Part shown: in pieces, positions 4,590-36,589 of the stretch
Position numbering within the stretch: the first letter of the stretch is position 1
How the letters are laid out: each line of letters opens with the position of its first letter
Origin: an uncultured delta proteobacterium
GTDB taxonomy: Bacteria > Desulfobacterota > Binatia > UBA9968
NCBI GenBank assembly: GCA_963847445.1
Contig: CAWJZV010000046.1
Coordinates: 422,564 to 486,563, forward strand
Length of the DNA: 64,000 nt
Reading direction: 5' to 3'
Made by a program: the position numbers and the translations under genes
The notes under the pieces: model-generated
What the model was told of the DNA's origin: nothing
The model's database searches: none
The model's input: only the letters and a program-made list of their open reading frames with translations

Positions 4590-5895
4590 TTACTGTTTGA
4601 TATCTCGCGGCGCGGTCTTTTTTAGCAACAAGGCGAGAAGCTCGAGGCGCTCCTTAGAAAGATTCTTGAGCGCGGATGACGAACCATCGCTCTCGCGGGC
4701 ATACGCCTCTTGCTTCACCGCAGGCACAGCAGCCAGATTTTCCAGATATTCCTCAACCGGCGCGATCGAAAGCTTCGAAACGTAATTCTCTGCGGCCTCC
4801 CGGGAGGCTGTGGATAGCTCGTCATAATGCTGCCGATCAGAGAGAAGTCGCTTCAACGCGTCGAGCCAAGGCCGAATATCTTGATCGGGGACGAACGGGA
4901 CTGGAAGCATCTGGTCATCTCGGCGCGTCTGGTAGCGCGCGATGGGCTCAACCGGCAAGAGATAGTCCACGCCTAGTTTTGCTTCGGGTAGGCCGCCAAG
5001 ATTGCTAGCCAAGACCGGGATTCCTCTGAGCATCGACTCGACGACGATCTTGCCAAAGGCTTCCCCCCACAGCGATGGCACCAGCATAATGCGGGTCCGG
5101 GCGAAAATCTGATCTATATCCTCGGTCGGCTGAAGCAGCTCCACATTAGGAAATTGTTTTAGGGCAACCCGGTCTGCAGCGGTAGTGGCCCAAGTCGGCA
5201 CTGCGGCAAACCTTTCCGCAGGTAAAGCGCGCGCCAGCTCTAAAAAAATGGCAATGCCTTTGATCGCCGACGGGTTGACCATCGTAATGAAGGCGTTATC
5301 CAATGATCCGGAGTGGGGCCACGGTGGGCTCCCGTAAGCCGGCAAGGAAATGGCGACCGAGTCCAGGCCGCCCCATTTATAAATATAACTCTTCAGGTAA
5401 TTGCTGACCGCTATGATTCCAGCCGTCCGCTGTAGCATTTGTGTCCTTCAACGGATCCGGCGAAAAACACTCGGGACCGAAAGGCAGAGTCGCCTGGCTG
5501 TGCGATAGATAAACAACACGTCCCGGCATGCTCTCCAGGGCAGCCGCCAGGGCAAGATAACTAGGATCCTCGGATATCAAAATCCAATCCGGCGAAAACT
5601 CTCCGACCTGCTTCAGAAGCTGGCCGCAAAATTGACTGGTGTCGGCGAGTTGGTGAACCTGAACGCCCTGGAGATCAAATCTCTCGGTGCAAGGCGAGAA
5701 TCCCGCTTCGGTCGGATTCAATGACTCGTTGCGCGATCCGCGGCGCGACGCGAAATGCGTTGCGGTGTGCGCCAACGCGAGGACTCTGCACAGGTGGCCT
5801 CTTCGGCTAAGATATTGCAGCAGCTCGCGGTTTGATTTTGCCGCCCCGGTCCAGCTCGGCGAATACGATAATTTCTGCGCCAGAAATATTTTCAC
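4590..5895 (-). CDS. Glycosyltransferase family 4 (GT-B) with C-terminal docking-like helix (frameshift near 5440)
   Basis: N-part MKIFLAQ..GAAKSNRELLQYLSRRGH; C-part PSLWGEAFGKIVVESMLRGIPVLASNLGGLPE; tail NLSKERLELLALLLKK. Confidence 0.85.
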
Positions 5896-8128: not shown

Positions 8129-9629
8129 TTAGGCGATGTGACCTGACCATAAATGTGCAGCAGCCTTACTGCTCTCGAGCTGGTGCACCGTCACGAGGCG
8201 TCCGACAACGGCTTCGGCGAGCGCGACGCGCGGATAGCGGCCCTGTGGCCCGCCCCCGGAAGCATCGATGTTTTTAGCGCCGGCGAGGTTGACCCAAAAG
8301 GGATCATCTTCGGTCCTCGGCTTATCTGGGCCGACCATACGGCGCAGCGCGGCCGCGCTGCGCCAGCTTGCGGCTCCAACGGCAATCCAGCATTGGTAGC
8401 GGTCCGGACTAGTCGTTAAAGTCAAAAACGCGTGAGGTCGCACCGCTTCGGCTGCCTGAGAATCGAGTTGATCGACCATTACCATCAAGGGTTCGCCCGG
8501 CCGGTCATTGGTCAGAGGCCGGATCATAACGTTTAAGTTTCCGATCGTCTGCAGCTTGCAAATGCGCTGGCAATCTCTCGAATAGTTGGTCGGGATCTAA
8601 AGCAGCCTCGGAAACAAGCAACTCGCCGGAATCAGTCGTCAGCAACAAGTCAAACCGATCCTTATCGACAGACAAAAATAGCGCAATGATGAGCTGCGCC
8701 TGCTCCAAGCAGGAGCGGGAATCAGTCGGTCCAGTTTCGCGGACGTCGAGACCGGTCATCAGGCGACGGTGCCCTCGGGCCCAGCGTGAAGTTGTGTGAT
8801 CCGCTTCAGGTGCAGTCTTGTCTGTAAAGAAGCGCACGGTCGCGACGTTCCACTTTTGATTAAAATGCTGGACTGTCCTCAGGTTCCAAGCTTCACTCCA
8901 GCGCAACATGAAATAGGGTAGATCCGACTCTTCACAAGGAGGCGGCGGAACGTAGCTGGTGACCGCCGTCGGCTCGATGTATACCGCTCCTCCGGCCTTT
9001 TGCACTTCCAAACACAGGTCAATGTGCTCCTGGTGGCTCAATAACTTTTCATCCAGCGGGCCGAGTTTCGCGAACACGTCCGTGCGAACCAACATGCAAT
9101 GGAATTCCGCGTAGTCCCAAGCGCTTCTTTGGAGCGGCACTTCTAGGTTAGCCATGGGAGTATCGAAAAGATATTGCTCGTCGTAAAGCACTCTTTGCCC
9201 TTGTTGCTCGGTGAATTTTAAAATTCCCCCCGCCATGTGGATCTTCTGGCGCTCGATCTCACCAAAAAGATAAAGCGGTCCGACAATCCATGCTCCTGTT
9301 TCTTCGGCGCATTGCACTAAGGCCTCGAGCCAACCGCGCGTGACCAGCGCATCATTGTCCACGAAGACGATGTATTCGGTGCTGATCTCGCTGGCGCCGA
9401 GATTTCGCGCTTGGTTAGGCGACAAAAATTGGTCCGTGTGGATAAGTTTGAAGCCCTTTGATTCCGCCTTCGCTGCGATCCGACGGTACATAGGTTCGGG
9501 GGTGCCGGCGCTGACGTAAATCAGTTTGAAAGGAAGTGTCGTTTCCTGGTAAACGTTTTCGAGGGTGCGCTCACTATGGCTGAAACGCTCCCTCGGTACT
9601 ATCACGACGGTGACTTGTGGTTCTGACAT
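8129..9629 (-). CDS. Glycosyltransferase family 2 fused to a RepB'-type DNA-primase-like domain (apparent single-base frameshift at about 8533)
   Basis: GT2: VTVVIVPRE, ARNLGA, FVDNDA, EHIDLC. Removing one A joins DDRKL to NVMIRP...VDQLD...AFLTLTTSPDRYQCWIAV...LAGAKN...YPRV, a RepB-primase-like pattern. Confidence 0.7.
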
Positions 9630-10019
9630 AATAAAAGACTCAGGTATCGGCCGATCCCGTTGCAGATCATTCCAGCTTCTAACTTCCTTTTGCGGAATCT
9701 GACCGGCCGCATGCGGTCCTGACTTCTTGCTCCTTTTTGTCCATCACCGGCATTATCGTACATTATCCACGTATCCGCCAAGCGAATACATTATCGGCAG
9801 TCGATCGAGCTTCGGCGGTCTGAGCTGCAATATGACGGAGTTCGCTCTAGCGGTTAAAATCAGTCAGAGTCTTCGGGTCGGAAGTCTCAGGGCGGGTTCA
9901 GACTTCGTGACAAACTAAGCCTAGTCGCGCCTGCCGGTCGGTAGTGCAAAGCTCAAAATGAAATCCACGGGGGTTCGGTTTTTACCTTATCAGTTACCGC
10001 TGGCAAAACCCGAAAATGA

Positions 10020-11042
10020 TTAAGCTGATTGGGGCTTGGTTTTTCCCATTCCAAACGACTCCGCCAGCAGTTCGTAGGAGCGATGGCGCGGCGCGGGATC
10101 GTAAGTCCATGTGACCACGACCAGCTCGTCGAGGTCGAGACCTTTCGCGAGTTCTTTCAATCGCGTGGTGACCTGGTCTGAAGACCCGACAATCGCTTTC
10201 CGGTGTAACTTTTCCGCAATCGCCAATTCAGCGGGCGAATACGGGCGGGTGGCTTCCTCCGGCGACATCAGCGGCTGGCGGATGCCTAGTTTGCGATCGA
10301 TCATGGCGCGCTCGCGCGATTTGAACTGGAACAGGGCTTCTGCTTCGGTATCGGCGGCCAGCGCCCAGACGCATATCGTGCAGATCGGCTTGGGATTATT
10401 TTCGCTCGGGCGATAGTTCTTGCGGTAAAGATCCAGTGCTTGCTCGACACCAAAGCCGTCGCTGAAGAAGTAGGCGAAGGCGTAGGGCAAACCAAAATAG
10501 GCCGCGAGTTGGGCGCCGTAGTCTGAGCTGCCGAGAATCCACATCTCCGGACTCGTCGGTCCCGTCGGTTGGGCAACGATTTTCTGAAACGGGTGGCCTT
10601 CGGGCAGCGGTTTCCCGGACACCCAGTGTTGCAGCTCCTGGACTTGCCGGGGAAATTGATCATGGACATTCTGCGGGTTCGGATTGAGCGCGTAGGACGT
10701 CAATTGATCCGATCCGGGGGCGCGGCCGATACCCAGGTCGATGCGTCCCGGCGCGATGGCCTCCAGGACGCGGAACTGCTCGGCGACTTTCAGCGCCGAA
10801 TAGTGCGGCAGCATGACGCCGGCGCTGCCGATACGGATGCGCGGCGTGGTGGCGGCGATCGCCGCCATGAGGATCTCGGGCGCGGTGCCGACGATATTAC
10901 CGGAGTTGTGATGCTCCGAGACCCAGTAGCGATGATAACCCAGCGCGTCGCAATGGCGCGCGAGCTCGAGGGTCTCACGGATCGCATTGTCCTGCGCTCG
11001 GCCCTTGGCCGCCGTCGATTGATCGAGTACTGACAATTTCAT
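10020..11042 (-). CDS. LLM-class flavin-dependent oxidoreductase (luciferase-like)
   Basis: MKLSVLDQS, RYWVSEHHN, RIGSAGVMLPHYSALKVAEQF, GRIDLGIGRAPG, WILGSS. Confidence 0.93.
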   Translation of the reverse strand: MKLSVLDQSTAAKGRAQDNAIRETLELARHCDALGYHRYWVSEHHNSGNIVGTAPEILMAAIAATTPRIRIGSAGVMLPHYSALKVAEQFRVLEAIAPGRIDLGIGRAPGSDQLTSYALNPNPQNVHDQFPRQVQELQHWVSGKPLPEGHPFQKIVAQPTGPTSPEMWILGSSDYGAQLAAYFGLPYAFAYFFSDGFGVEQALDLYRKNYRPSENNPKPICTICVWALAADTEAEALFQFKSRERAMIDRKLGIRQPLMSPEEATRPYSPAELAIAEKLHRKAIVGSSDQVTTRLKELAKGLDLDELVVVTWTYDPAPRHRSYELLAESFGMGKTKPQSA

Positions 11043-11250
11043 GGATGACCTGCGTGTCGGGCACAGTTCATTGTCGAGTTTGTTGGGAAGAGCATTCATC
11101 ACGAATAATACAGTGCGGCAAGGCCGCAACCAAACACCGGAATATCTCGCGCCAAGCTCGCAAAGACCACCAAGTTGTGAGATCAAATCTCCTTGGGGCC
11201 GGGGTTGGGAGGCGTTCGCGTGCGCGCACTTGGCGCGAGAAACGCCTCGG

Positions 11251-12167
11251 TTAACCGAGCCGATCGCCGACGTTTAATCCCGCCTGTTTGGCAAATTCCG
11301 CAGCCGCTGACTCTTGGCGCCTGCGCCGCGGGCTTTTTTCACGGTTAGAGTGCCACCGTTGAGGGCGATGGTGATTTCTGCTCCACCGATGCCGGTCACC
11401 TGTCCGGCTGGCGCGGCATTATTGCCAGTCTGCAGCCGCGCGTCGAAGATGCGCACCAGCTTGCCGTTGTAGGTCGTGTGCGCGCCGGGTTGGGGGTCGC
11501 AGCCGCGGATTAGGTTATAAACTTCCTGCGCCGGTTTGGACCAGTCGATCTTGGCATGGGCGTCGTCGCAGATGGGGTCGTAATTGGCTTTGGATTCGTC
11601 TTGGACGATGCGCGGCGGGTTGCCGGCTTTGATGAGGTCGACCGCTTCGCCGATCGCTTCGATGCCCAGGGGAAAGATTTTGTTGAAGTACAACGATCCG
11701 GTGGTGTCGTCCGGCTCGATCTTCACTTCCTTTTGCAAGAGGATCGGCCCGGTGTCGATGCCTTTGTCGACCCAAAATAGCGAAAGTCCGGTGACCGATT
11801 CGCCTTTGATCAAGGCCCAGTTGATGGCGCTGGCGCCGCGATACTTGGGCAAAAGCGACGGATGAAAGCAGATGCTGCCGAGTTTTGGCACGCTGAAAAC
11901 TTGCTGCGGGACGATCTGGGTGACGAACGCGAGAATCGCTAGATCGGCGTTCAACGCGACGAATTCGTCACACACTTCCGGCGCTTTGAAGGATTTAGGC
12001 TGGCGCACCTCGATGTGGAGATCGATGGCTTTCTGTTTTACCGGGTCGAATTTGCCGTTGGGCGGATCGGGCGGGCAATAGACCGCGACCACTTTCTCGC
12101 CTTTGCCGACGAGTTTTTCCAGAGTCTTTTCGGCAAACGCCGCTTGTCCGATCAATATTATTCGCAT
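11251..12167 (-). CDS. Formyltransferase (Fmt / 10-formyl-THF dehydrogenase N-domain-like); indels near C-terminus
   Basis: FHPSLLPKYRGASAINWA, DKGIDTGPIL, IDWSKPA..VYNLIRGCDPQPGA. Confidence 0.85.
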
Positions 12168-12232
12168 TTGGTGAAACTCCGAAATTGTAGAGCTAGCGCG
12201 TTACGAAGACGAGCCACGATCACGATTTCTCG

Positions 12233-12760
12233 TTAGCCGATGATTTTAAAGTCGCCGCCCTTGTAGCTCCGGCATAGATTGACGTAGGTGGTTGAGCCCA
12301 TCTTGATCCAGTGCAGCGCTTCGCCGGTAATTTCCTTCTTGACCTTGGCGGGCGCGCCGGCAGCGAGCACTCGAGGCGGGATGATCGTGTGCGGCGTTAC
12401 CACGCTGCCGGCGCCGATCAGGGCTTCTTCGCCGATCTCGACATGTTCGAGCAGGGTGACGTTCATGCCGATGATCGCGCCGCGCTTGACCAGCGGACCT
12501 TCCATGATTGCGCCGTGGCCGATGGTGCAATCTTCTTCGATGATCGTCGGTGCTTCGCCGGAATGAATCACGCAGTTGTCTTGCACGCTGGTGCGGGCGC
12601 CGATGACGATGGGATTGGCGTTTTGATCCGAGCGCAAGACCGCGCCCCACCAGATGCTCGCTTCATCGCCGATGGTGACATCGCCGATGATCACTGCGGT
12701 GGGCGCGATGAACGCCGTGGGAGAAACATGGGGCCGTTTGCCTTTGTATTCGATGAGCAT
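12233..12760 (-). CDS. Gamma-carbonic anhydrase family hexapeptide-repeat protein (YrdA/CaiE/PaaY-like)
   Basis: AFIAPTAVIIGDVTIG, IGARTSVQDNCVIH, TIGHGAI, AGAPAKVKK. Confidence 0.9.
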   Translation of the reverse strand: MLIEYKGKRPHVSPTAFIAPTAVIIGDVTIGDEASIWWGAVLRSDQNANPIVIGARTSVQDNCVIHSGEAPTIIEEDCTIGHGAIMEGPLVKRGAIIGMNVTLLEHVEIGEEALIGAGSVVTPHTIIPPRVLAAGAPAKVKKEITGEALHWIKMGSTTYVNLCRSYKGGDFKIIG

Positions 12761-12970
12761 GAAGAGCGAACCTCCGTAGATAAGTCACGATATTGGACGT
12801 GCCCGGGGAAATCAAGATTGTTGGTGCAATGTCGCGAGTGTGGATTGACTCGATTGGTAAAATTGTTAATGCTTTGCCAACTTTGCAGACCCTCAACCTA
12901 GCCCTCTCCCGCATGCCCGGGCGAGGGGAAAAGATTAGGAGAGCGGTCGATACCTATTGGAGGTTAGATT

Positions 12971-22608: not shown

Positions 22609-25379
<2,771 letters not shown>

Positions 25380-25501
25380 GTTGTTGAAGTACATACGCTG
25401 GAAGAAAACGGGCCGGTCGAAGGTATTCGGTCGGCCCGTTGTAGCTTTGATGCAGAGAACTGCAGGTTAGCACAAATCTAGAATCTGGATAGAATTCAGA
25501 A

Positions 25502-26410
25502 ATGGCTCTAGTTTTTCTATCGCATAGCAGCTGTGACAAGGAACTCGCCCGGAGACTCGCGATTGATCTGCGTATGTCGCGAATACGTGTGTGGTTTGAC
25601 GAGTGGGAAATCCACGTGGGTCACTCTATAAGTCAGCGCATTGGAAAGGGCTTGGACGAGGCTGATTTTGTTGTTGTTCTTTTGACAAAACAGAGCATCG
25701 CTTCTGGTTGGGTTCAAAAAGAATGGATGAGTCGGATCGGAGACGAAGCAATTTCTCAGGGTATCTTTGTCCTTCCGGTTCTTGCAGAAGACTGCGTTAT
25801 CCCACGCCTACTTCAGGATAAGCGGTATGCCGATTTCCGGTCCGACTACGAATTGGGCCTACGTGACTTAATCTCATCAATCCAGTTGCATGCAGCAAAT
25901 GAACTTACGATTTCGGGCGGCGCGACAATTGAGTCGGGGCGAATAGTGTATGAAGACGTGATTCCCGATATTCCGATGATGCGAGGACTCATAAACACGA
26001 TAGAAAGCGGATTTTTTGAAAGACACAAATACGGACTCAAAGCGCATGTGCAATTCATATCTTCGCATCAAGCGCTACAGGACTTCGCGGACACGTGGAG
26101 TGCGAACCGGGTAACATTAGAAAGTACTGACTATTCGATTTCATGTGACCCAGGCAAACCCTCAGAATTTGTTGCAACGCGTAGCATCAAACTCCCAGCG
26201 GGATCGCTTCTTCCAGATATATCGACAGGGAAACAGCTGCGACTTCCGCTTTCCATTGATATGGATGTTGCCACCCGGGTTGTTGGTAGATTTACAAACG
26301 GTACAGTCGTTGGAAAGTTTTATCAGACCACCTTGCTCAGGTCGGCAATTCCACTTCCTATTCCTGATATAAATGTGAGCGGTAGCTTCAAGGCCATTGT
26401 GTCAGTGTAA
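25502..26410 (+). CDS. TIR-domain protein (TIR_2) with unrecognised C-terminal domain
   Basis: VFLSHSSCDK, VWFDEWEIHVGHSI, SGWVQKEW (catalytic Glu position), VLPVL, YADFR; AT-richer codon use. Confidence 0.88.
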   Translation: MALVFLSHSSCDKELARRLAIDLRMSRIRVWFDEWEIHVGHSISQRIGKGLDEADFVVVLLTKQSIASGWVQKEWMSRIGDEAISQGIFVLPVLAEDCVIPRLLQDKRYADFRSDYELGLRDLISSIQLHAANELTISGGATIESGRIVYEDVIPDIPMMRGLINTIESGFFERHKYGLKAHVQFISSHQALQDFADTWSANRVTLESTDYSISCDPGKPSEFVATRSIKLPAGSLLPDISTGKQLRLPLSIDMDVATRVVGRFTNGTVVGKFYQTTLLRSAIPLPIPDINVSGSFKAIVSV

Positions 26411-26620
26411 TTTGTTGGTCATCTCGACGAAAAAGAAGAGGTTTCCGATTCCTCAACTCAGCGGTGACTCTGCAATATGCGCTGAAGATATTAAGCAACG
26501 CGGCGAATAGGTGATTATCGATGTCGGCAAAAATCGAAGTGTGTCGTTGACGAAACTACGCAGCGGCAGCCGCAGCGACTTCAGGGATGTTGTTAGTCAG
26601 GCGATCGGGGTCTACTTTTT

Positions 26621-26700
26621 TTCACAACAATCTGAAGAGAAAGTCTTGAAACAAAAGTTTTACTCGTTTTCTTTTTCTTCATAAGTCGTGCCCCGCTGCG
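26621..26700 (+). repeat. Island repeat family 2, copy 1 (about 80 bp)
   Basis: TTCACAACAATCTG...AAAGTCTTGAAACAAAAGTTTTAC...AAGTCG...CGCTGCG recurs at 31825-31904. Confidence 0.8.
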
Positions 26701-27612
26701 GCCACAGGCGGAACGGACTTAGGGGACATCCTATAATTTTCTTGTCAAGTAGTATTTTAAAAAAACTTATCCGTCGAGCTTTACAGCCTGAACAATCTTT
26801 TTGTCCACCAGCACCAACGGCGAGTCTCTCACTTTATTCGAACTCTGCACCTAAGCGTTACAATTATCCGGCGTACTTGCTTTCAGTCGCCCAGCATCCC
26901 TTATCCAGGTTGCAGCAGTTCAGTGAGAGAGGCCCCGAGAAATTGTCCCTTTACGAGGTCCATTTGGCCTCCATGCTATTGACCGGGGTCCTCTCTCGCC
27001 CGCAGAACCGATCTTATTACGGACCGGCTCTGCAGTAGCTCAGCGCGATCTTTCTCACGCTGAGAGTTCGTTTCACCGGTGCGGCTTTAAAAACGGCTTC
27101 CATAAAAGCCCTATAACGCACGCGCCGCGTCGGGTTGGACCTTTGGTATACCTCCGTTTTTCATCTTGGCGTTGCTGGCGGCTGCGATCATCTGATCGCC
27201 GGCACCGAGATAGCCAGGGTCAGGAGAAGGGGTCAGACTCTCATGTCTCGACTTTCTTCATCGGGTTCTCAAATCCCGCCGCATTTCTTCATCATTTTTC
27301 AACCGTGAAGCAATCGATGGACGTTGTTGACTAGCTGGACAACGAGGATCCGAGGGTCAAATAGTTTCGACTTATTGCCAAGCTGATTTGAGCCGGTCGA
27401 AACCGACTTTTCCTTCGCTTCTACCTTTTCAGAGCATGCTCGGAGGCTCGCTCTTTTTCGCGCTCCCAACGCGGTCGATAATTGCGTCCAGCAATTCATC
27501 GACCCTCTTCGGCTTAAGATTGAACAACAAACCCGCTTCTCATGGTTTCCTTCCTGCTGATCCTGAATCCGGAAATAGAGTTTTGCTCCGCTCACGCGCT
27601 TCGCACAGTTCC

Positions 27613-27862
27613 TACAAAGACGGCACCACCCATATCTCATGTCGCCGCTGGAATTTATGCAGCGACTCGGCGCGCTGGTACCGCTCGGGCAGTTTGCGCG
27701 AGCGTCGGGACAGGGAACAAATCAAGCGCATCCGACCGCTACATCGCCCGAATCGGCCGAAGCAAGATCCGCGATTGTCAATCAACACACGTGCGATTGA
27801 CGGCCCGCCGGTTCGGCGCTATAGCTCCCGTCAGCGAAAAAGGCTGTTTAACTGTCGTATAC
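27613..27862 (+). mobile_element. IS91/ISCR-derived remnant A: transposase fragment joined to oriIS-like end
   Basis: YKDGTTHI/MSPLEFMQRLGALVP at 27613-27684; core CAGGGAACAAATCAAGCGCATCCGACCGCT; ends GTTTAACTGTCGTATAC. Confidence 0.75.
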
Positions 27863-27941
27863 AGCAATGGCGTCTCTCTCGTTTGTCTATTTGCCCGTTC
27901 GGCGATGCTCTGTTAAAGTTATGGTGAGTTGAGGATCACTG

Positions 27942-28181
27942 ATGGAAACCGTAAATATCGATGAGATGCATCGTGACTTTGCTCGCGTCATGGATAGGGT
28001 CGCTAAGGGCGAAGAAGTTGTGATTACCAGCGCGGGGAGTCCGGTGGCGAAATTGGTGCCTTTCAATCGGCCTTCTGTGCGGCGCGTGCCGGGTTGTTGG
28101 AAGGGTAAAGTTCGTATCGCTCCTGATTTCGATGTTCTGCCACCAGAAGTGGCGGCGGCCTTTCGCGGCGACGTTCCGTGA
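27942..28181 (+). CDS. Phd/YefM-family antitoxin
   Basis: FARVMDRVAKGEEVVITSAGSPVAKLVP, DFDVLP; overlaps toxin start. Confidence 0.9.
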   Translation: METVNIDEMHRDFARVMDRVAKGEEVVITSAGSPVAKLVPFNRPSVRRVPGCWKGKVRIAPDFDVLPPEVAAAFRGDVP

Positions 28182-28555
28182 ATTTACTTCTGGACACCCA
28201 CGTCCTCCTATGGTGGCTGGCGGACGATGCTCTTCTTCAGCCTGCAGCTCGCGACGCCATCCGAGACCAAGCGAATGTTGTCTATGTGAGCGCAGCGACG
28301 GCATGGGAAATCAGTATTAAGAAAGCGCTTGGAAAGCTCGATTCACCGGACGATCTCGCCAACACTCTTGAACTCAATAACTTTCATCCTCTGGAAATCA
28401 CCATTGCCCACGCCACGATGGCTGGGTCCCTGCCGCGTCACCATGATGACCCTTTCGACAGAATGCTAATCGCCCAGGCTCAAGCCGGCCAGCTCACCTT
28501 GGTTACACATGATGGATGGTTTCGCGCTTACGGAGTTGCGGTAATTTGGACCTAA
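28178..28555 (+). CDS. vapC: PIN-domain (VapC) toxin
   Basis: LLLDTHVLLW, VSAATAWEI, HDDPFDRMLIAQA, LVTHD. Confidence 0.93.
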   Translation: MNLLLDTHVLLWWLADDALLQPAARDAIRDQANVVYVSAATAWEISIKKALGKLDSPDDLANTLELNNFHPLEITIAHATMAGSLPRHHDDPFDRMLIAQAQAGQLTLVTHDGWFRAYGVAVIWT

Positions 28556-28714
28556 TGAGCAGTGGGCGGCGTGCTCGATGCCATCTGTGCTAATGCATTC
28601 TTCCGACGTTGGGCCGAAGAGTAACTTCAAGGACACAGGCTGTAATGTGGAGTCTTTGCTTGATTGAAATCTACGCTGTCTGCCGCATTCTCGGTCGATT
28701 GTAAGTCGTCGATC

Positions 28715-28975
28715 ACTAGGAACTAAACAATACCTGACAGTTGTTTTCCTCTGTTGAGAGCGGACACTTGTTTTCAACGCAGGCCGACGATGCTGCTCGG
28801 TCACGCGTTTGAGCGAGCGCACCGACAGGGAACAAATCAAGCGCTTCCGACCTCTGCATAGCCCGAACTATCCGAAGCAAAACGGCGATTATCACCCAAC
28901 ACTCGTGCGCTCGACGACTCGCCGGTGCGTCGCTACGGGTGCCGTCAGAATGTGAGTTGTTTAAATTTCTTATCC
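28715..28975 (+). mobile_element. IS91/ISCR-derived non-coding element B with oriIS-like end
   Basis: Colinear with 29907-30154; core CAGGGAACAAATCAAGCGC; ends GTTTAAATTTCTTATCC. Confidence 0.72.
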
Positions 28976-29046
28976 AGACAAAGGTAGATGGCTACTCCGT
29001 AGCAGCCGGCGCTTGACGGCGGTGGGTCAATGGCCGCCTTCTGCTT

Positions 29047-29337
29047 TCACGCCGCTAACGCCTTCAGCACGGCTTTCGGGTCAGTCTTGATCGCTCGCAG
29101 CAGAGCCTTTGCCGGGCCAGTGGGCTCTCGTCTGCCCTGTTCCCAATTGCGCAAAGTACCAACGTCGACGTGCAGGAGCTTCGCGAACTGCGGCTGACTG
29201 AGGCCGGTCATGGCTCGAATCTCCTTGACCATTGCGGCATCGACATAGAACTCTCGCGACGGCGCGCGAACGCCGCGCACGATTTCATCCATCTGACTCA
29301 TGCTTTCTACTAATCGCTTAAACAGCTTCTTGTCCAT
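29047..29337 (-). CDS. XRE/HTH antitoxin (HigA/NadS-like)
   Basis: IRAMTGLSQPQFAKLLHVDVGTLRNWEQGRREPTGPAKALL. Confidence 0.92.
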   Translation of the reverse strand: MDKKLFKRLVESMSQMDEIVRGVRAPSREFYVDAAMVKEIRAMTGLSQPQFAKLLHVDVGTLRNWEQGRREPTGPAKALLRAIKTDPKAVLKALAA

Positions 29338-29339
29338 CG

Positions 29340-29654
29340 TTACCACCCCGCATTAATTTTGCGCAACACGGTCTTTTCCTTGGGCGTCAAGTCGTCTTTG
29401 ATTCCCTTGCGGTAGATCAGAATCAGTCGAATCTGAGCTTGTGCGACCACGTGGTAGTAGATCACGCGCGTGCCACCACGTTTGCCCCGTCCCGCCGTCG
29501 TCCATCGAACCTTTCGCAAGCCGCCGGTGCCGGCAATGACATCCCCTGCATCCGGTTGGCTGACCAGATGCCGCTGCAGGGCAGCATAGTCCTTATCGCT
29601 GAGCAGCGCTTGCACATCTGCAGTGAAAATCGGCGTCTCAACGAAGACCATCAC
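29340..29654 (-). CDS. RelE/HigB2-family toxin
   Basis: FVETPIF, PDAGDVIAGTGGLRKVRW, GKRGGTRVIYY, KDDLT. Confidence 0.92.
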   Translation of the reverse strand: MMVFVETPIFTADVQALLSDKDYAALQRHLVSQPDAGDVIAGTGGLRKVRWTTAGRGKRGGTRVIYYHVVAQAQIRLILIYRKGIKDDLTPKEKTVLRKINAGW

Positions 29655-29906
29655 TTACAGTACACTAATGGCGTTTACTACGTCAATGACTTACCCTCGA
29701 AACGGTCAAGACCGAACGCGCGTGGGTCGATGCAAGAAGCGGGGAAATCTTCATGCGTTCTTTTAAGGTGCTCAACAGAAGCTCGGCCTTTTCATGTCCC
29801 GTTCGAATTTCGCCGCTGATCTTGCTCAGACGACGAATTGTGCGATAGAAAAACCATTCGGGTAGTGAAACAGACTACGAAGGAGCCGCGCCATGTCCAG
29901 ACGGCT

Positions 29907-30154
29907 ACTAGCAACTAAACAATACCCGACAGTTGTTTTTCTCAGTTGAGAGCCGCAAGCTGGTGCAACGCAAGCCGACGATGCAACTCAGTTTCGCGTT
30001 CGAGCGGGCGCGCCGACAGGGAGCAAATCAAGCGCATCCGACCGCTGCATCGCCCGAACTATCAGTACCAAACTCGTGATTTTCACCTTGACGACTCGCC
30101 GGTGTGGAGATATAGCTCCCGACAGAGGAATGAGGGTGTTCAAATTTCCTATAC
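29907..30154 (+). mobile_element. IS91/ISCR-derived non-coding element C with oriIS-like end
   Basis: Colinear with element B; ends GTGTTCAAATTTCCTATAC, close to the ISCR oriIS terminus as recalled (GCGTTTGAACTTCCTATAC). Confidence 0.75.
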
Positions 30155-30203
30155 GTAGAACCGACTACATTGCCTGAAACACAAACCAAGACACATCAAC
30201 TTT

Positions 30204-31739
30204 ATGAGCACTAAATGCGTCATCAATGTGGATCTGGCCGACGTGTGGGGTGAGGCTGGTCGTAAAAAATTCCTGCGCACACTCGGGTGGGGCGATGAAG
30301 TCCTCGTGACCGGGCAGAGCTCCACCAGCATTGAAATCGAGACGGTTTATTTCAACGAGCAGCCCGATGGCAGCATCCTGTCCGTGAAGGAGGCGGGCGT
30401 CATCGAGCCGAGAAAATCATCCGGCATCAAAACCGCCGATGTGGTGCGCCCGCGCAATCAGAACGACGTCCTCAAGGTCAATTGCGTGGACGTCCAGCAA
30501 GGCGATGGCTCCGTGATCGAGTCACCCGACGGCAAGGTCATTCTCGTGGATGGCGGCGACAACCAGTTGTTTGCCCGTTACCTCGCGGGGCGGTACCGCG
30601 GAACGACGCCTGAGAATCCGAAGGAAATTGATTGCATCCTCGTGACCCACGGTGACGCCGACCACTTCGCCGGCCTGCCTGAAATCTTTAAGTCCGAGAC
30701 CAACAGCAACAAACGAAAGCGCCTCTTCATCCAGCCGAAACGGTATTACCACAACGGCATCGTCAAGCGCCCGAGCAAGAAGAACGGCAAGAGCGTGCCG
30801 GACGTTGAACTTCTCGGAGCGACGCGCAAGGTTGGGAACCAGACGTTTCTCACCGGCCTGGAATCCGATTTGTTGAAGGTGCCGGACGCGGAGATGAATG
30901 CTCCGTTCAAGGAATGGAAGGGCGCGCTCCAGGAATACAACAAGCGCTCCAAAATTGAATTCCGCCGGCTTGAGTTCGGCGACAATCAGGCCTTCTCATT
31001 CTTCAACCAGGGTGACCTCCGCATTGAAGTGCTGGGCCCGTTGGTGACCCAGGTTGGCGGCAAGTCTGCACTCCGCTTTCTCGGCGACCCTCCGAAGGGA
31101 CCGCGCGTCGGCCACGAATCCTTGAATCTGGGCGAGGAAGGATTCAAGGGACACTCCGCGTCGCACACCATCAACGGCCACTCCATCGTCTTCCGCCTTG
31201 TTTACGGCGGCTTCAGCTACCTCTTCACGGGTGACCTGAATGACGAGGCCAGCCGGTTCCTCACCCGTGAGCACAACGCGGGACGCCTCAACCTCATGGC
31301 CGAAGTCTTCAAGGTGCCGCATCATGGGTCCGCGGATTTCTCCGGCGCATTGTTCCAGGCCGTCTCACCCGTCGTCAGCATCGTTTCCAGCGGCGACGAA
31401 AGCGCGCGGAAGGAATACATTCATCCAAGGGCGACCCTCGTGGGCGCTTTGGGCAAATGGTCGCGAGTTCCCGAGCCGCTCATCTTCGTCACCGAACTGG
31501 TGGCATTCTTCAATGTTGAAGGCTGGTCGAAGCTAGCGGACCCAAAGACGAAGGCGCAAAAGGAGCGCGGCGAATTCTTTGGTTTCAGCCGCACCGCCTT
31601 CGGCATCGTCAAGACACGGACCAACGGCAAACGCCTGTTGGTCTATACCGACAGCGGCAATGTGCAGATGAAAGAGGCGTATGCCTACGCCCTCGACTCC
31701 TCCGGCGTTCCGCAGCCTGCCGTTGTTCTGCGCGCATGA
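30204..31739 (+). CDS. Metallo-beta-lactamase-fold hydrolase (ComEC/Rec2-like MBL domain, no TM part)
   Basis: DVQQGDG, ILVDGG, THGDADHFAG, NGHSIV, LFTGDL, KVPHHGS, YIHP. Confidence 0.88.
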   Translation: MSTKCVINVDLADVWGEAGRKKFLRTLGWGDEVLVTGQSSTSIEIETVYFNEQPDGSILSVKEAGVIEPRKSSGIKTADVVRPRNQNDVLKVNCVDVQQGDGSVIESPDGKVILVDGGDNQLFARYLAGRYRGTTPENPKEIDCILVTHGDADHFAGLPEIFKSETNSNKRKRLFIQPKRYYHNGIVKRPSKKNGKSVPDVELLGATRKVGNQTFLTGLESDLLKVPDAEMNAPFKEWKGALQEYNKRSKIEFRRLEFGDNQAFSFFNQGDLRIEVLGPLVTQVGGKSALRFLGDPPKGPRVGHESLNLGEEGFKGHSASHTINGHSIVFRLVYGGFSYLFTGDLNDEASRFLTREHNAGRLNLMAEVFKVPHHGSADFSGALFQAVSPVVSIVSSGDESARKEYIHPRATLVGALGKWSRVPEPLIFVTELVAFFNVEGWSKLADPKTKAQKERGEFFGFSRTAFGIVKTRTNGKRLLVYTDSGNVQMKEAYAYALDSSGVPQPAVVLRA

Positions 31740-31824
31740 CAAAAACTGGCAACAGCGTCCTTCGGCAGCTTGGGCAGTTCGCTCGCTGCCCACCGACGAA
31801 GATTGATAGGAGTCAGATAATTAT

Positions 31825-31904
31825 TTCACGACAATCTGCAAAGAAAGTCTGGAAACAAAAGTTTTACCGATTTCCTTTTTCTACAGAAGTCGCGCAGCGC
31901 TGCG
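31825..31904 (+). repeat. Island repeat family 2, copy 2
   Basis: Matches 26621-26700. Confidence 0.8.
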
Positions 31905-31907
31905 CGT

Positions 31908-32052
31908 GCAAGGCGCAGGCAGCCGATTTATTCCAAACTGCCTGAAGGTTGGATCCTGGTGCCAACGTAACCGACGGTGCTGCTCGGCCTCGCGTTGGAG
32001 TGAGCGTGCCGCCAGGGCACAAATCAAGCGCATCCGAGCGCTGCAGCACCCC
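31908..32052 (+). mobile_element. IS91/ISCR-derived remnant D: transposase C-terminus plus truncated core, no ori motif
   Basis: AQAADLFQTA-stop at 31945, then CCGACGGTGCTGCTCGG...CAGGGCACAAATCAAGCGCATCCG. Confidence 0.65.
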
Positions 32053-32274
32053 GCTTCACCATCGCCAAATGGCTTCCGGAAATGGTCTGCGAATATTACC
32101 ACTTTCCGGCCGCCACGAAAGAACCGGCCGTACATGGACACATTTAAATTATTGGGGTTGGAAGAGTTCAGCGAATGGGCGCAGTTGGATTGAGTTGATT
32201 TCTCGAGCGAGCGGGACGTCGATCTACTAGATCCATGATGTGCCAGGTCAATAAAATCGTTGCTCTCCCTCGGG

Positions 32275-32694
32275 TTAGGGCTTGAATGGGATAATATGCA
32301 GGTTGGCGATCGGGCGATAGTGTTTAAGATTGGCGGTCGCCAGTGATCCGTTTGTGTCCAGCGTCGAAGCGGCAATCAGCGCATCGACGACACGCAGTCC
32401 ATTCGGCAATGCGTGTCGATCGAGCAGGTCGCTGGCTTTTCGACAGTTTGTTTCATTCAAGAATATAACTTGAGCGAAATTTTCCGAGACGAACAGTTTG
32501 ACTTCGCGTATTTCCGCATTGTTTCGGCAGCCTTGGGTCAACTCCATGATGCTCAGTACGGAGATCGCACGTCTGGAATAGGCGATGGCATCGATCGCCC
32601 GAAGCGCTTTTTCACTGCCTCGCAAATACCAGATTAAGATGTCGGTATCGAATACTACCGGGTAACGCGAGGTTGCCGAAGTTTGCTCAGCCAT
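32275..32694 (-). CDS. vapC: PIN-domain (VapC) toxin
   Basis: VFDTDILIW, SIMELTQG, DALIAAS, TANLKHY. Confidence 0.9.
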   Translation of the reverse strand: MAEQTSATSRYPVVFDTDILIWYLRGSEKALRAIDAIAYSRRAISVLSIMELTQGCRNNAEIREVKLFVSENFAQVIFLNETNCRKASDLLDRHALPNGLRVVDALIAASTLDTNGSLATANLKHYRPIANLHIIPFKP

Positions 32695-32897
32695 TGTTCC
32701 ACGTTGCGATTGTCTTTTCGGTCTTTCCAGATGCCAAAGCCGGCCGCTTTCAGCGCTTTGGGTCGCTTTGCGTCGATGGGCGCTAGCACCGCGATGGGTT
32801 TGTTGCGATAAGTGATCGTCACCGGTTGGCCCTTGCGGACTTCGTCGAGAATGAGCGCGGTTTTATTTCGCAAATCTTTAGCTGTCGCCGTTCTCAC
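32655..32897 (-). CDS. Phd/YefM-family antitoxin
   Basis: TAKDLRNKT..ILDEVRKGQPVTITYRNKPIAVL, FGIWKDR; GGAGG RBS before GTG. Confidence 0.9.
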   Translation of the reverse strand: MRTATAKDLRNKTALILDEVRKGQPVTITYRNKPIAVLAPIDAKRPKALKAAGFGIWKDRKDNRNVEQWLSKLRQPRVTR

Positions 32898-33232
32898 GGT
32901 TGCCTCCGAATAAAGTATGCACTTCAAAGTATATACTTAGGGCAGCGCCGCTACAAGGAATGGGGAGAAAATCTGCCGGATCGCCTCATCCCCGGCAGCA
33001 AGTGGCCGAGGGTCCTCTTTTGCGGTTCGAAAGGACGTTATGTTGCCTGTGATAGGGAATGATATATGGATTAGCCGTGGCAAAGGATGACTCACTTGCT
33101 CGACTCTGCCCAAGGGTCTCATTATTCGGGAAAGTGATACCAAGAGTCTGTTAATAAGTGATTTGGCAACTCGGACGGGACATAGTAAAGATCGATCACT
33201 TGTTTATCTAATAAACTTCAGAGGAGATTTTC

Positions 33233-34262
33233 GTGAAAAGAATTTTGCTACTTTTACTGTTTAGCTTGATTGCGATTTCGCCCGTCTCAGCCCAGACGCC
33301 CTTCTACCAGGGCAAGACCGTGCAGATCCGTGTCGGCTTCGCCGCGGGCGGCGCGTTCGATGTTTGGGCGCGGGTGATCGCTAGTCATCTCGGCCGCTTC
33401 GTACCGGGGAATCCGACGTTTGTCGTGCAGAATATGACCGGCGGCGGGTCGATGGTTGCGGCGAATTATATTTATAGCGTGGCCAAGCCGGATGGCTTGA
33501 CGCTCGGTGTGGTCAGCCCGGCGATGTATATCGAGCAGGTGACCGGCAAGAAGGAAGTGCAGTACGACTGGTTCAAGTTTAGTTTTATCGGCTCGCCGGA
33601 GAAGACCGATCGGATTTTCTACATGCGCGCCGATTTGGGAATCAAAACCCTAGAGGACATGCGCACGGTGGCGGAAACGCCGCGGTGCGGGTCCACCGGC
33701 ATCGGCAGTGCGGCCTATTATTTCCCGCGTTTGTTGCAAGATACGTTTGGGCTCAAGCTCACCATCGTGCCGGGTTATCCTGGAGCTGCCGATGTCAATC
33801 TTGCCATCGAAAAGGGCGAGGTGCACTGCTTTAGCGGCACGTTGCAAGCGTACTTTGGCAGCGAGCCGTTGCGCACTTGGTCAAAGACCGGATTCGCCCG
33901 TGTGCTGGTGCAGGGCGGGACCAAGCGCGATCCGCGCATGGCGAGCGTGCCGACATTGTGGGAGTTGATGGACAAGCATAAGTCCAACGAGATTTACCGC
34001 CGTTTGGCGAGAGATACTGCTCATTCCCGACGATATGGGCCGGCCGCTGTTCGGCCCGCCGGGCATGCCGGCTGATCGTTTGAAGGCGTTGCGTGACGGT
34101 TTCAATAAGATGATAGCCGACCCGGAGCTGCTCGCCGAGGCGAAGAAAAAGGGTCTCGATGCTACGCCGCTGAGCGGCGAGGAACTCGACGCGCTGATTA
34201 AAGAAGCCGGCGTGCCGTCGGCGGATACCATTCAACGGCTGAAGCCGCTGATGGAAAACTAG
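33233..34262 (+). CDS. Tripartite tricarboxylate transporter substrate-binding protein (TctC/Bug; frameshift near 34010)
   Basis: FYQGKTV..VGFAAGGAFD, PGNPTFVVQNMTGGGS, KPDGLT, GYPG, RPLFGPPGMPADR. Confidence 0.88.
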
Positions 34263-34466
34263 CTCACCGGCGTATGGACAGGAGTTCGCAGAAATAATTA
34301 AGCGTGCACTGGAAACCGCAGCGAGATAGGCCCGGTCACGGTGCGCCGGCCATCCATGCGGCGTGAAAATATTGCGATCGCGCAAACGCTCCGACGAAAA
34401 CACAAAGGCCAAGAAACACCGGCTCCTCGGCGTGCTTGGCCTTTGTCACTCGCGAGCGAGTAAAAG

Positions 34467-34776
34467 TTATTTAACGTGCTTGCTGACCAGCTTGGTCATC
34501 TCGAACATGGTGACGGTCTTCTTGCCGCCGAACACGTCCTTCAACGCGTCGTCGGCGTTGATGTTGGTGCGTTTCTTTTGATCCTGCAGGCCGTTCTTCT
34601 TGATGTACTGCCCACAGCTTCTTGGTCACTTCGGTGCGTGGGATCGGCTTGCTGCCGACGACCAGGGCGAGTTTGGCGTCAGGCTGAACCGGCTTCATGA
34701 ACGCCGCGTTGGGTTTTCTCTTCTTTTTCGCGGCGGCTTTCTTTTTCGCGGGCGCTTTCTTTTTCGCTGCTGCCAT
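34467..34776 (-). CDS. SWIB/MDM2-domain protein with Lys/Ala-rich N-tail (frameshift near 34610)
   Basis: KRKPNAAFMKPVQP..LA.VVG..PIPRTEVTKKLW, then YIKKNGLQD..RTNINADD.LK.VFGGKK.VTMFEMTKLV. Confidence 0.9.
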
Positions 34777-34816
34777 ATTGTTTTCCTCCTTCAGGAAATA
34801 AATTTATTTCGTCAAC

Positions 34817-36589
34817 TTATAGCAGAGGTACTCCGATCTTTGCGAGCGAATTATCCGAATTTTCCTCGTAAATGGCGTAGTTTCTCCCTCGTGGAGAGCT
34901 CGGCTCGCCGTCGACGATATGGGCGGCGACGCCGTAGTCGGACTGGGCGCGGGCAACGGAGACATAGCCCTGGCGCAGGTCTTCGAGGACTTTTTCGACG
35001 GGGCGTTCGAGCGGATTTCCCAGGCCGCCGCCGCCGGGGCGTTCGACGCGGATGGTATCGTTTCGCCTTAACCGATGGTCGCCGAAGCGGGACGGCAGCG
35101 CCTTTTCATCTTTGGTCGATGGATTGATCCGGCAGGCACCTTTAGCGCCGGGTAGGCCGGCGGAGCTGCCGAAGGGCTCGACGGCATGCTTGTCGGTGCG
35201 CATCGAGAAGCGCACTTCGTCGGCGAGTATTCGATATTCGCGGACAAAGCCCAAACCGCCGCGCCACTCGCCGGCGCCGCCGGAGTCGGCGAGCATCTCG
35301 AAGCGCTCGACCCGGGTGGGGAACTCGGACTCGATGATCTCGATGGGCGCGGTCTTGCAGTTGCTCAGGTGAAACGCCGTCGCCGAGACACCGTCCTTGC
35401 CGGCGCGGGCGCCGGTGCCGCCGCTGAAAATCTCATAGTGGACATAGGCGCGCTGGCTGTGCGCGTCGCGGCCGCCCAAGACCAGCGCCGCGCTGCCGGA
35501 GCCGCCGGCGATGCGTTTGTCGGGGACGAAGTGCGCCAGGGCGCGCAGGATCGCTTCGGTGGCGCTGAGCGCCGTCGGCATATAGGTATTCACCGCGGCG
35601 GGAAAGCGCGGATCGACGACGCTGCCTGCGCGAAAGGTGGCGTCGACGCAGCGGGCTAGTCCATGATTGATCGGCAGGAAGCGGTCCACCAGGGCGACTA
35701 GACAATAGGCGCAGGCGGCGCGCACCAGCGGCGGGCGGATGTTTGCCGGTCCTTGGGTCTGATCGCTCGATTCGCTGAAGTCGAAGTGCAGCCGGTCGCC
35801 GGTCTTTTTTACTTTGACATGAATGCGAATCGGTTTAGTCAGATCGATGCCGTCGTGATCGACGAAGCTCTCGCCCGCGGATTCGCCGTCCGGCCACGCG
35901 GCGATAGCCCGGCGCACCCGGTTCTCCGTGTGGGCGGAAAGCAGCTCGGTGGATTCCAAAATGATCGCTTTGCCGTAGCGCTCCATGAGCTCGCTGACGC
36001 GCCGCTCGCCCAACCGCGCCGCGCCGACCTGGCCGCGCAGGTCGCCCAACACCAGCGCCGGTGTGCGGCTGTTGGCCGCGATCACGGCGTCGATCTCCTT
36101 GACCGGCTGAAGCCGCGCCATGAACTTGACCGGCGGCAGGTGCAACCCTTCCTGGTAAATCTCCCGCGCCGTGCCGCTGCCGCTGCCGGGCACGGTGCCG
36201 CCGATGTCGCTCTTGTGCGCCATGTTGGCGGCGAAGCCGACCCATTCGCCGCGAAAATAGATCGGCGTGAACACGCCCATGTCGGGGGCGTGGGGGCTGC
36301 CGCCCAAGTACGGATGGTTGGTGATGAAGGCGTCGCCGTCGTGAATGTCGTCGGTGGAGAATGTTTTCAGAATCGCCGCGGCGCAGGCGGGAAAGGCGCC
36401 CATGTGGAGCGGCAAGACAACATGCTGGGCGATCACCTCGCCGCGGGTGTTCAACACCGCGCAGCTGGCGTCCTGGGATTCCCGGATGATCGTCGAATAG
36501 CCGGTGCGAAATAAAGAGTTCTGCATCTCCTGGACGATGCCGGCCAGGCGCGCTTGGATGACTTGCAGGGTGATGGGATCGACGGTCAT
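34817..36589 (-). CDS. Hydantoinase B/oxoprolinase family protein (copy 2; C-terminus uncertain)
   Basis: DPITLQVI, RTGYSTIIRESQDASCA, TNHPYLGGSPHAPD, HKSDIGG, DSGGAG, PGGGGLGNP. Confidence 0.9.
   Translation of the reverse strand: MTVDPITLQVIQARLAGIVQEMQNSLFRTGYSTIIRESQDASCAVLNTRGEVIAQHVVLPLHMGAFPACAAAILKTFSTDDIHDGDAFITNHPYLGGSPHAPDMGVFTPIYFRGEWVGFAANMAHKSDIGGTVPGSGSGTAREIYQEGLHLPPVKFMARLQPVKEIDAVIAANSRTPALVLGDLRGQVGAARLGERRVSELMERYGKAIILESTELLSAHTENRVRRAIAAWPDGESAGESFVDHDGIDLTKPIRIHVKVKKTGDRLHFDFSESSDQTQGPANIRPPLVRAACAYCLVALVDRFLPINHGLARCVDATFRAGSVVDPRFPAAVNTYMPTALSATEAILRALAHFVPDKRIAGGSGSAALVLGGRDAHSQRAYVHYEIFSGGTGARAGKDGVSATAFHLSNCKTAPIEIIESEFPTRVERFEMLADSGGAGEWRGGLGFVREYRILADEVRFSMRTDKHAVEPFGSSAGLPGAKGACRINPSTKDEKALPSRFGDHRLRRNDTIRVERPGGGGLGNPLERPVEKVLEDLRQGYVSVARAQSDYGVAAHIVDGEPSSPRGRNYAIYEENSDNSLAKIGVPLL

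Follow-up and report, generated by a model that had tools for sequence, protein, structure and literature searches.

Repeats resembling IS91-family 3' ends alternate with toxin-antitoxin and other small genes behind nrdJ in a delta proteobacterial chromosome

Insertion sequences (IS) of the IS91/ISCR kind are known chiefly for gathering resistance and virulence genes on proteobacterial plasmids. Here we describe a locus in a 64,000-nt stretch of contig CAWJZV010000046.1 from an uncultured delta proteobacterium (the window; coordinates are window positions unless a contig is named), where four co-oriented repeats, A to D, alternate with small genes behind nrdJ, the gene for a class II B12-dependent ribonucleotide reductase. 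Judged by their homology, the repeats are oriIS-side non-coding 3' tails of a genus-specific IS91-family insertion sequence, and the locus is probably a decayed accretion site of ISCR-like kind, on which this element landed repeatedly and in one orientation. Genomes of the same genus, called relatives below, are coded G003, G008 and so on, G000 being the genome of the window, with C for contigs and L for loci.

The closest described elements are ISCR1 and ISCR2, which belong to the same family of Y2 HUH transposases. ISCR elements have a non-coding oriIS region after the transposase gene, 232 bp long in ISCR1 as against 208-262 nt in our repeats (PMC6218425), and variable genes lie on the oriIS side, where intact or partial copies bracket the cargo as ISCR2-cargo-ISCR2 or form tandem structures (PMC6218425, PMC7722449). 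Two outward promoters in the ISCR1 oriIS region raise the oriIS-side variable genes 13- to 15-fold (PMC6218425), and an outward promoter-like motif is, by sequence alone, conserved in the tails described here too. Unlike ISCR, however, our arrays are chromosomal and belong to an environmental genus, most of their units are entirely devoid of a transposase, up to five tails stand in a row with each pair around one gene, and the cargo consists of toxin-antitoxin (TA), defence-type and small metabolic genes instead of drug resistance genes.

IS801, with CRR1 and the solo ori801 fragments of Pseudomonas syringae plasmids, is a member of the same IS family that likewise occurs as many truncated copies keeping the ori end. 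TA systems are interleaved with these copies, one plasmid having eight ori801 and seven TA systems, and the ori801 fragments are considered to be open to mobilisation in trans and to serve as sites of recombination (PMC6354349). The plasmid copies are scattered in mixed orientation, accompany virulence genes and have GAAC/CAAG borders, while the arrays reported here are tight, co-oriented and sited at a chromosomal hotspot, and no such tetranucleotide was found at them. Integrons and attC clusters resemble the locus in that a repeat alternates with single promoterless-looking genes and TA pairs and that strains differ unit-wise, but this is analogy and not homology, as there is no tyrosine integrase and no attC, the repeats come from the end of an HUH transposon, and each of them may carry its own promoter in place of one Pc for the whole array. 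ISCR copies bracketing cargo and ori801 fragments among TA systems are already in print (PMC7722449, PMC6354349, PMC6218425), and a full-text literature search returned nothing on chromosomal IS91 arrays that consist of co-oriented tails alone and surround TA, defence-type or metabolic genes. The locus suggests that IS91/ISCR machinery leaves ordered, co-oriented, tail-only arrays in an environmental chromosome, with the hotspot behind nrdJ being used repeatedly. It offers natural units with which to ask whether an oriIS tail is enough for mobilisation in trans and whether tails are portable promoters, and it also bears on whether TA pairs anchor such arrays against element-caused deletions.

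The repeats and their intact relatives

Beginning with nrdJ, the order is TIR gene, repeat A, VapBC pair, repeat B, HigBA-like pair, repeat C, metallo-beta-lactamase (MBL)-fold gene, repeat D and second VapBC pair (Table 1). This alternation had been described in an earlier note made from the letters of the sequence, and both its order and the common orientation of the repeats on the + strand were confirmed by repeat search and Pfam. The repeat search yielded a 74-nt family in four copies (starts 27692, 28807, 29998 and 31994, with 70-82% identity to the reference) and longer blocks present in three copies, and a MAFFT alignment revealed a core that is invariant across A to D, CAGGG..CAAATCAAGCGC.TCCGA. 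The repeat ends quoted in the earlier note, GTTTAACTGTCGTATAC, GTTTAAATTTCTTATCC and GTTCAAATTTCCTATAC, are present in the sequence. Three points are corrected: homology of B to a relative's copy starts at 28651, D runs farther than had been thought, to ~32157-32194, and a fifth remnant was added. In a BLAST search with B against the whole 7.19-Mb assembly we obtained six matches in total, with E values of 2.7e-45 for C, 3.9e-28 for A and 3.3e-16 for D, and beyond A-D there were only two weak ones, on contig C21; an exact-pattern scan of the genome's contigs for the invariant core gave 0 stretches.

The copies differ in what they keep. Missing from tail A are the C-terminal ~110 residues of the transposase and, of the tail itself, positions 1 to ~25. 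B and C begin near the last transposase codons (DNA alignment), and C resembles an in-register hybrid of the two corresponding tails in the comparison of G003:C22 with G000:C21. The 3' part of D has no end of the A-C type and is 91% identical to G000:C21:22877-23023. This part belongs to a separate small repeat family, with 75-80% identity to G000:C34:130158-130304 and 137105-137181, perhaps representing the terminus of a further IS91-like lineage.

Pfam and NCBIfam searches of the translated repeat frames, up to E 10, called no transposase family. Repeat A, used as a query against the relatives, pointed to G008:C10, where a 438-aa open reading frame (ORF), open at the contig end, lies directly behind nrdJ and carries the domains Y2_Tnp (3.4e-30) and Zn_Tnp_IS91 (3.8e-19) in Pfam. 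The link of these two domains to the repeat passes through this copy at the same site, the window itself having relics alone. With the G008 protein as query, 371 of 509 candidate stretches counted as related, and from these results 80 loci were retained, 36 of which form the intact set, defined by a longest ORF that is a transposase reaching the conserved C-terminal motif and by at least 350 nt of downstream sequence. The best named match of the G008 transposase is in a metagenome-assembled genome of Candidatus Acidoferrum (84% identity). When the 36 full-length transposases were compared by tblastn with positions 25001-34000, the best E value was 1.3e-5 and the best 40 rows all fell on 27562-27683, where relic A is 81-93% identical over SPLEFMQRLGALVP; a weak trace of transposase residues ~280-363 extends back to 27363 (E 0.022, G008 protein). 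In a DNA alignment relic D matches the ends of the transposase sequences in G008:C51 and G003:C32, and the transposases of intact relatives end in ...DLFQAA or ...FFQTA, which resembles it. The tblastn match and the DNA alignment of DLFQTA-stop bear out the claim that A and D retain transposase peptides. A minus-strand similarity of 26702-26794 to transposase residues ~101-141 (E at least 0.12) was treated as chance.

The non-coding part of the repeats has its counterpart in complete elements. At three loci of the same genus (L051, L055 and L032) the profile built from A-D starts at the end of a detectable C-terminal transposase fragment or no more than ~70 nt from it. The 36 intact elements, which come from other phyla, have a non-coding tail of 217-316 nt after the stop codon, and TTT[AG]W2-5..C[CT]TAT terminates this tail in 30 of the 36; of the other six, four have near variants of it. 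The ends of A, B and C are like this terminal motif of the intact elements, the end of D being a divergent variant, and the profile also matches the tail of the intact betaproteobacterial element L062 (E 7.2e-10), ending there 223 nt after the stop. Published accounts put oriIS on the downstream side of the transposase gene, where the IS has its 3' end (PMC5737581, PMC6354349). Because of the relics, the tail homology and this published position, the repeats are assigned to the oriIS side of an IS91-family element, in accordance with the identification proposed in the earlier note.

Of ten near-identical copies of the related IS91-family element on named proteobacterial contigs of different genera (within L090-L108), nine share the same DNA upstream of the transposase over the whole readable length, up to 260 nt, which looks as if it had been carried along with the element. 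The exception is L105, which diverges ~108 nt upstream of the transposase.

Landing behind nrdJ and differences between genomes

The full-length profile matches 12 places in this genome: four in the window, which are matches by construction since the profile was built from them, three on C21, two on C7 and one each on C48, C26 and C45. In this genome the 3' end is preserved in every profile match; the 5' start ranges from profile position 1 to 163. A sequence-only model of the 3' module, made from the last 84 nt of 30 copies with the unpublished genome G005 left out of the model and included in the tallies, matched in 28 of the 31 genomes of the genus; this genome has 14 matches on at least nine contigs, and the highest count, 27, is that of G008. 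Tail-punctuated arrays do recur behind nrdJ, in support of the earlier note, whereas the dispersal of the 3' module does not speak for its interpretation.

The terminator hairpin after nrdJ ends at ~25450 and synteny with G008:C10 stops at 25450. We surveyed the DNA downstream of nrdJ at 15 loci of relatives and in G008:C10, and IS91 material was found there in several arrangements: a near-complete copy in G008:C10, five co-oriented tails behind a second nrdJ in G003:C22, two tails by profile in G023:C397, where the 3'-module census adds a third, co-oriented ori-end match at 12374, three tails in G014:C10 and one weak match in G006. Seven nrdJ-downstream loci examined over 12-16 kb had no IS91 material, and four further contigs were too short to tell. 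The site behind nrdJ can thus be considered a recurrent landing place of IS91 material, as judged from these comparisons. At the G014:C10 locus (L144) two tail ends, 5000-5080 on the - strand and 5097-5163 on the + strand, are inverted and 17 nt apart, and G003 has two nrdJ 3' ends, 96% and 89% identical.

Co-oriented arrays are also present elsewhere, with three tails in G000:C21, two in G000:C7 and three in G003:C32, where in two units transposase fragments still stand between the cargo and its tail. Of the 232 matches of the 3'-module census 150 are listed, and among those listed 18 neighbouring tail pairs no more than 5 kb apart are co-oriented and seven opposite, a ratio drawn from genomes that are kin. 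The cargo of these other arrays is metabolic or unknown (TctC-like, cupin, NHL, CMD, GST, DUF4136), so that the picture of stacked defence and TA cassettes, which fits the TIR gene and TA pairs of the window, does not extend to arrays with cupin, CMD, NHL, TctC and GST genes.

Two of these contigs have features of their own. On G000:C21 (L137), a 509-aa fusion of a TIR domain with an FHIPEP (FlhA-like) C-terminal part is encoded between two tails at 9563-11092, and between the same tails a second FHIPEP C-terminal protein of 370 aa is encoded at 11704-12816; this TIR-FHIPEP pairing is unusual and possibly represents a defence gene. On G000:C7, a 111-nt repeat (139301-139411 and 144699-144809, 99% identity) occurs twice 5.4 kb apart with one tail in between, its copies lying inside two same-strand ORFs, the second of which has an MBL fold, and most relatives have one copy.

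Comparison of units between genomes places the breakpoints of their differences at or inside tails. The block 28861-29700, consisting of the 3' part of tail B and the HigBA pair, is 87.6% identical in G014:C10 and 89.6% in G023:C397, with different DNA on its left, and 29018-29453 is 94.5% identical in G003:C22. The nrdJ arrays thus have one piece, the HigBA block, from a common ancestor. G007:C22 carries the VapBC block 27949-28570 at 93% identity, with a tail remnant 134 nt downstream of it. Both G003:C22 and G000:C21 have an intact cupin cassette; that of the window is gutted, and its leader (29821-29899) is 93.8% identical to a stretch directly after a tail in G003:C22; since this leader is without its gene, the cupin unit was lost by internal deletion. 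G000:C21 lacks the NHL unit of G003:C22, and at its junction one tail breaks off near position 71 and the next continues from near position 163; this loss is an out-of-register deletion between tails and not a precise ori-to-ori excision. Loss of units by ordinary recombination or deletion between tails was observed, and precise transposase-mediated excision was not. Cassette boundaries had been expected to coincide with repeat ends; this agrees with the differences at or inside tails, whereas the one resolved unit loss is out of register.

Assembly of the array in the window is independently backed by contigs from another metagenome (X2), which bridge A to VapB, C to the MBL gene and the MBL gene to D. 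In the contigs of X1, X2, X6 and X10 a part of the stretch, 25574-26721, is uncovered. Loose ends at 29899 (X2) and 31873 (X6) lead into cupin-like sequence, may belong to the C21 paralogue or to other strains, and were not used.

Origin of the array and possible roles of the tails

Each tail corresponds to the ~210-260 nt that separate the oriIS end from the stop codon of the transposase. If the locus grew by accretion, IS91 copies, or one-ended products that always keep the oriIS end, would have arrived serially after the nrdJ terminator, and small horizontally acquired genes (TIR, two VapBC, HigBA-like, MBL-fold and formerly cupin) would have ended between the copies. The transposase genes would then have eroded, to ~36 clear residues in A, the last codons in D and nothing in B and C, and the outcome would be a tail-punctuated array whose tails remain as portable homology and possibly as promoters. 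Every intact tail could be a starting point of rolling-circle mobilisation by a transposase acting in trans, a property reported for IS801. Serial insertion as the way in which the array was built is what we infer.

The most consistent link of a tail is with the gene that follows it. In 11 loci there are 27 tails that have the ori end; a co-oriented ORF begins no more than 200 nt after 16 of them and an opposite ORF follows four, three of these four being the same HigBA block. In an alignment of 30 tail copies with a mean column identity of 71%, exact TTGAC is present in 27 and TATAGC follows 17 nt later in 16, at 35-39 nt from the end and facing outward. By analogy with ISCR1 we infer that the tails may still serve neighbouring genes as outward promoters. 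TTGAC/GTCAG is at the same time the outer of two nested imperfect palindromes (TGACG./.CGTCA, CGCCG/CGGCG), and the oriIS ends of IS91 and IS801 are described as having two subterminal palindromes (PMC13181058). The palindromes of our tails are paired in 74.6% of cells compared with 24-45% when slid, a figure for a structure drawn from the same sequences, and they show no covariation (score 0.059, shuffled mean 0.059); no consensus fold of the 3' module was found, RNAalifold predicting no pairs. The promoter and the palindrome reading of the tail motif are not separable here.

Several observations weigh against serial accretion with tails that act as promoters. Instead of arriving serially, the tails could have entered an existing island singly. 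No left (terIS) end was recognised for any unit, and the bases that follow the tail ends (AGCA, AGAC, GTAG, GTAT, AGAT and others) include no tetranucleotide of the GAAC/CAAG type (target 5'-GTTC/CTTG, read as GAAC/CAAG on the transposase strand). This assembly, which is 91.8% complete, holds no cognate transposase, with 0 matches of the G008 protein at E <= 1e-5. With regard to the promoters, the -10-like hexamer is without its final T, a sigma-70 consensus scan calls no site in the tails and its totals are not above those of shuffles, and the HigBA and second VapBC pairs are opposite to the tails, where promoter use cannot hold; conservation of the motif may serve the transposase rather than RNA polymerase. 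Candidate left-end blocks show no significant similarity among themselves, nor with the left flank of the G008 copy (local alignment against shuffles). Intact relatives of the subgroup are also without a GAAC/CAAG flank, and the subgroup may use another target.

An intact IS91 transposase with the same end, which the earlier note proposed to look for in this genome, is missing from the assembly at the threshold given above, and no ORF of the array region carries IS91 transposase domains by Pfam and NCBIfam, hence there is no autonomous element in it. The element on C30, the genome's sole full Y2_Tnp gene, was considered as a helper and rejected, since its identity is a distant 24-25% over 76-80 residues and its tail is without a match. 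In a gene-capture platform, non-autonomous ori-to-ori units would be excised as single-stranded circles by a transposase in trans and re-inserted beside oriIS, as an integrase-free analogue of the integron. Such a platform is in accordance with the occurrence at several loci of co-oriented tails that have a single gene or TA pair between them, with the cupin unit lying immediately behind a tail end at all three of its places (G003:C22, G000:C21 and the gutted copy of the window), with the VapBC block and its downstream tail recurring in G007, with the description of IS801 fragments with ori801 as mobilisable in trans (PMC6354349) and with IS91 single-stranded circles that form and insert (PMC13181058). 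We nevertheless hold it to be unlikely, as neither terIS nor a target tetranucleotide is seen at unit borders, no cognate transposase is at hand in the assembly, the NHL unit was removed by an out-of-register deletion instead of being cut at ori ends, many tails are 5'-truncated at varied positions, and the blocks that arrays have in common, HigBA for one, are compatible with vertical inheritance from a single ancestral array. Contigs of X1, X2, X6 and X10 had no joints reported, and contigs cannot show rare circles. Of the platform as first put forward, the stacking of cargo stands; mobilisation of the units in trans is a conjecture, with no terIS, target, cognate transposase or precise excision. 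A broader version, in which tails are both cut-and-join sites for an HUH transposase in trans and promoters of the units that follow, so that the nrdJ arrays would be a rolling-circle analogue of chromosomal integrons, seems to us quite unlikely. If the cassette idea were true, the nrdJ arrays would shuffle TA, defence and small metabolic genes.

It is also conceivable, if rather improbable, that short one-ended products, made of the oriIS end and a variable length of the IS, landed singly in an older island and owe their co-orientation to a replication strand bias. The dispersal of the 3' module described above is what such solo insertions would produce, the constant 3' end with a variable 5' start in this genome is the signature of one-ended transposition (PMC6354349, PMC13181058), and single tails lie directly upstream of unrelated genes on C7, C45 and C26. 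At variance with it, A and D, as well as units in G003:C22 and G003:C32, still have transposase fragments on the cargo side of the tail, so at least those came from longer copies, a strand bias for IS91 is an extrapolation from other single-strand transposons, and an empty site turned up for none of the tails; for the C7 tail, the 675-aa gene carries it in all three genomes that have the gene. The attC core has the consensus GTTRRRY, and one may ask if the repeats are attC-like sites of a degenerate integron without an integrase, given that they are short, alternate with single genes and TA pairs and have ends beginning with GTT. This has next to no probability: GTTTAAC, GTTTAAA and GTTCAAA do not fit that core, the repeats are 208-262 nt long and are joined to transposase relics, the 3' module yielded no consensus fold, and an integron origin is excluded because the repeats are homologous to IS91-family tails. 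Nor does any of the 16 ORFs scanned with Pfam over 25.4-33.2 kb contain an integrase domain, and the absence of integrase and attC maintained in the earlier note therefore holds. Repeated landing of IS91-family tails behind nrdJ, followed by decay, accordingly remains the account we consider probable, and if the tails are inert the locus still illustrates how IS decay can leave repeats that are mistakable for a dedicated cassette system.

Genes and smaller features of the array

Table 1. Features of the array behind nrdJ (window positions)
Feature	Position	Strand	Basis and remarks
nrdJ, class II B12-dependent ribonucleotide reductase	22609..25379	+	Pfam Ribonuc_red_lgC 8.8e-121, Ribonuc_red_2_N, TSCPD
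TIR-domain protein, 302 aa	25502-26410	+	Pfam TIR_2 5.8e-27; PADLOC PDC-S66 and ThsB-like TIR matches
84-nt block	26617-26700 and 31821-31904	+	83% identity between copies (repeat search)
Transposase relic A	27562-27683, two frames	+	residues ~364-399, DGTTH / SPLEFMQRLGALVP
Tail A	27656-27863	+	profile positions 26-234; fused to transposase relic; ends ...GTTTAACTGTCGTATAC
VapBC-type pair	Phd/YefM antitoxin 27942-28181, PIN toxin 28178-28555	+	Pfam PhdYeFM + PIN
Tail B	28715-28976	+	full-length, profile 1-234; homology to relative's copy from 28651
HigBA-like pair	RelE-family toxin 29340-29654, upstream of HTH_3 antitoxin 29047-29346	-	Pfam
Fifth tail-end remnant, 25 nt	~29795-29820	+	alignment with G000:C21 and G003:C22
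Cupin leader, 80 nt, and first codons	29821-29899	+	directly after fifth remnant; cupin gene deleted
Tail C	29907-30154	+	full-length; ends ...GTTCAAATTTCCTATAC
MBL-fold hydrolase, 511 aa	30204-31739	+	Pfam Lactamase_B 3.3e-13
Transposase relic D	31905-31948	+	last codons ...DLFQTA + stop; ORF 31736-31945 ends DLFQTA
Tail D	31930-32194	+	profile match 31930-32157; 5' half like A-C including invariant core; 3' part 32053-32194 other variant
Second VapBC-type pair	PIN 32275-32694, Phd/YefM 32655-32927	-	Pfam PIN + PhdYeFM

The cargo includes three predicted type II TA pairs, PhdYeFM with PIN twice and a RelE-family protein with HTH_3. The first VapBC pair starts 79 nt past tail A and the MBL gene 50 nt past tail C, both in the orientation of the tails. 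The G+C content of the TIR gene is 0.46-0.49, compared with ~0.58-0.60 in nrdJ. The MBL protein has weak NCBIfam matches to Avs1a and ComEC, far below cut-off, and its PADLOC matches to LmuA, RTasMBL and Avs1a are confined to the MBL core; with the gene as query it was found in none of the 30 other genus genomes searched, and near-identical MBL contigs were present in other metagenomes. An Rfam scan of 24000-35000 (E <= 1) returned just a chance match to HIV-1_SD, and there is no tRNA or tmRNA in the window. The 84-nt block has just its two copies in the genome, each upstream of a transposase relic, and its reading as a left end of the IS or as a homologue of the cupin leader found no support (local alignment against shuffles, z -0.2 to 1.4).

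The reading frame of nrdJ is broken near 24520 and 24620 (24400-24950), where three overlapping ORFs are found and the G008 orthologue reads through, so either a pseudogene or indel errors of the assembly are concerned. On the other side of the array no conserved right border was found in relatives. The TctC-family solute-binding gene that begins at 33233 belongs to a large paralogue family, with orthologues 90-91% identical in G004 and G003 that lie away from nrdJ; in the window (33233-34262) it is split into ORFs of 280 and 75 aa, overlapping at 34035-34075. Beyond it, a lysine/alanine-rich ORF of 101 aa on the - strand (34471-34776) has 18-nt tandem repeats and no Pfam match, and its product looks like a histone-like or DNA-binding protein.

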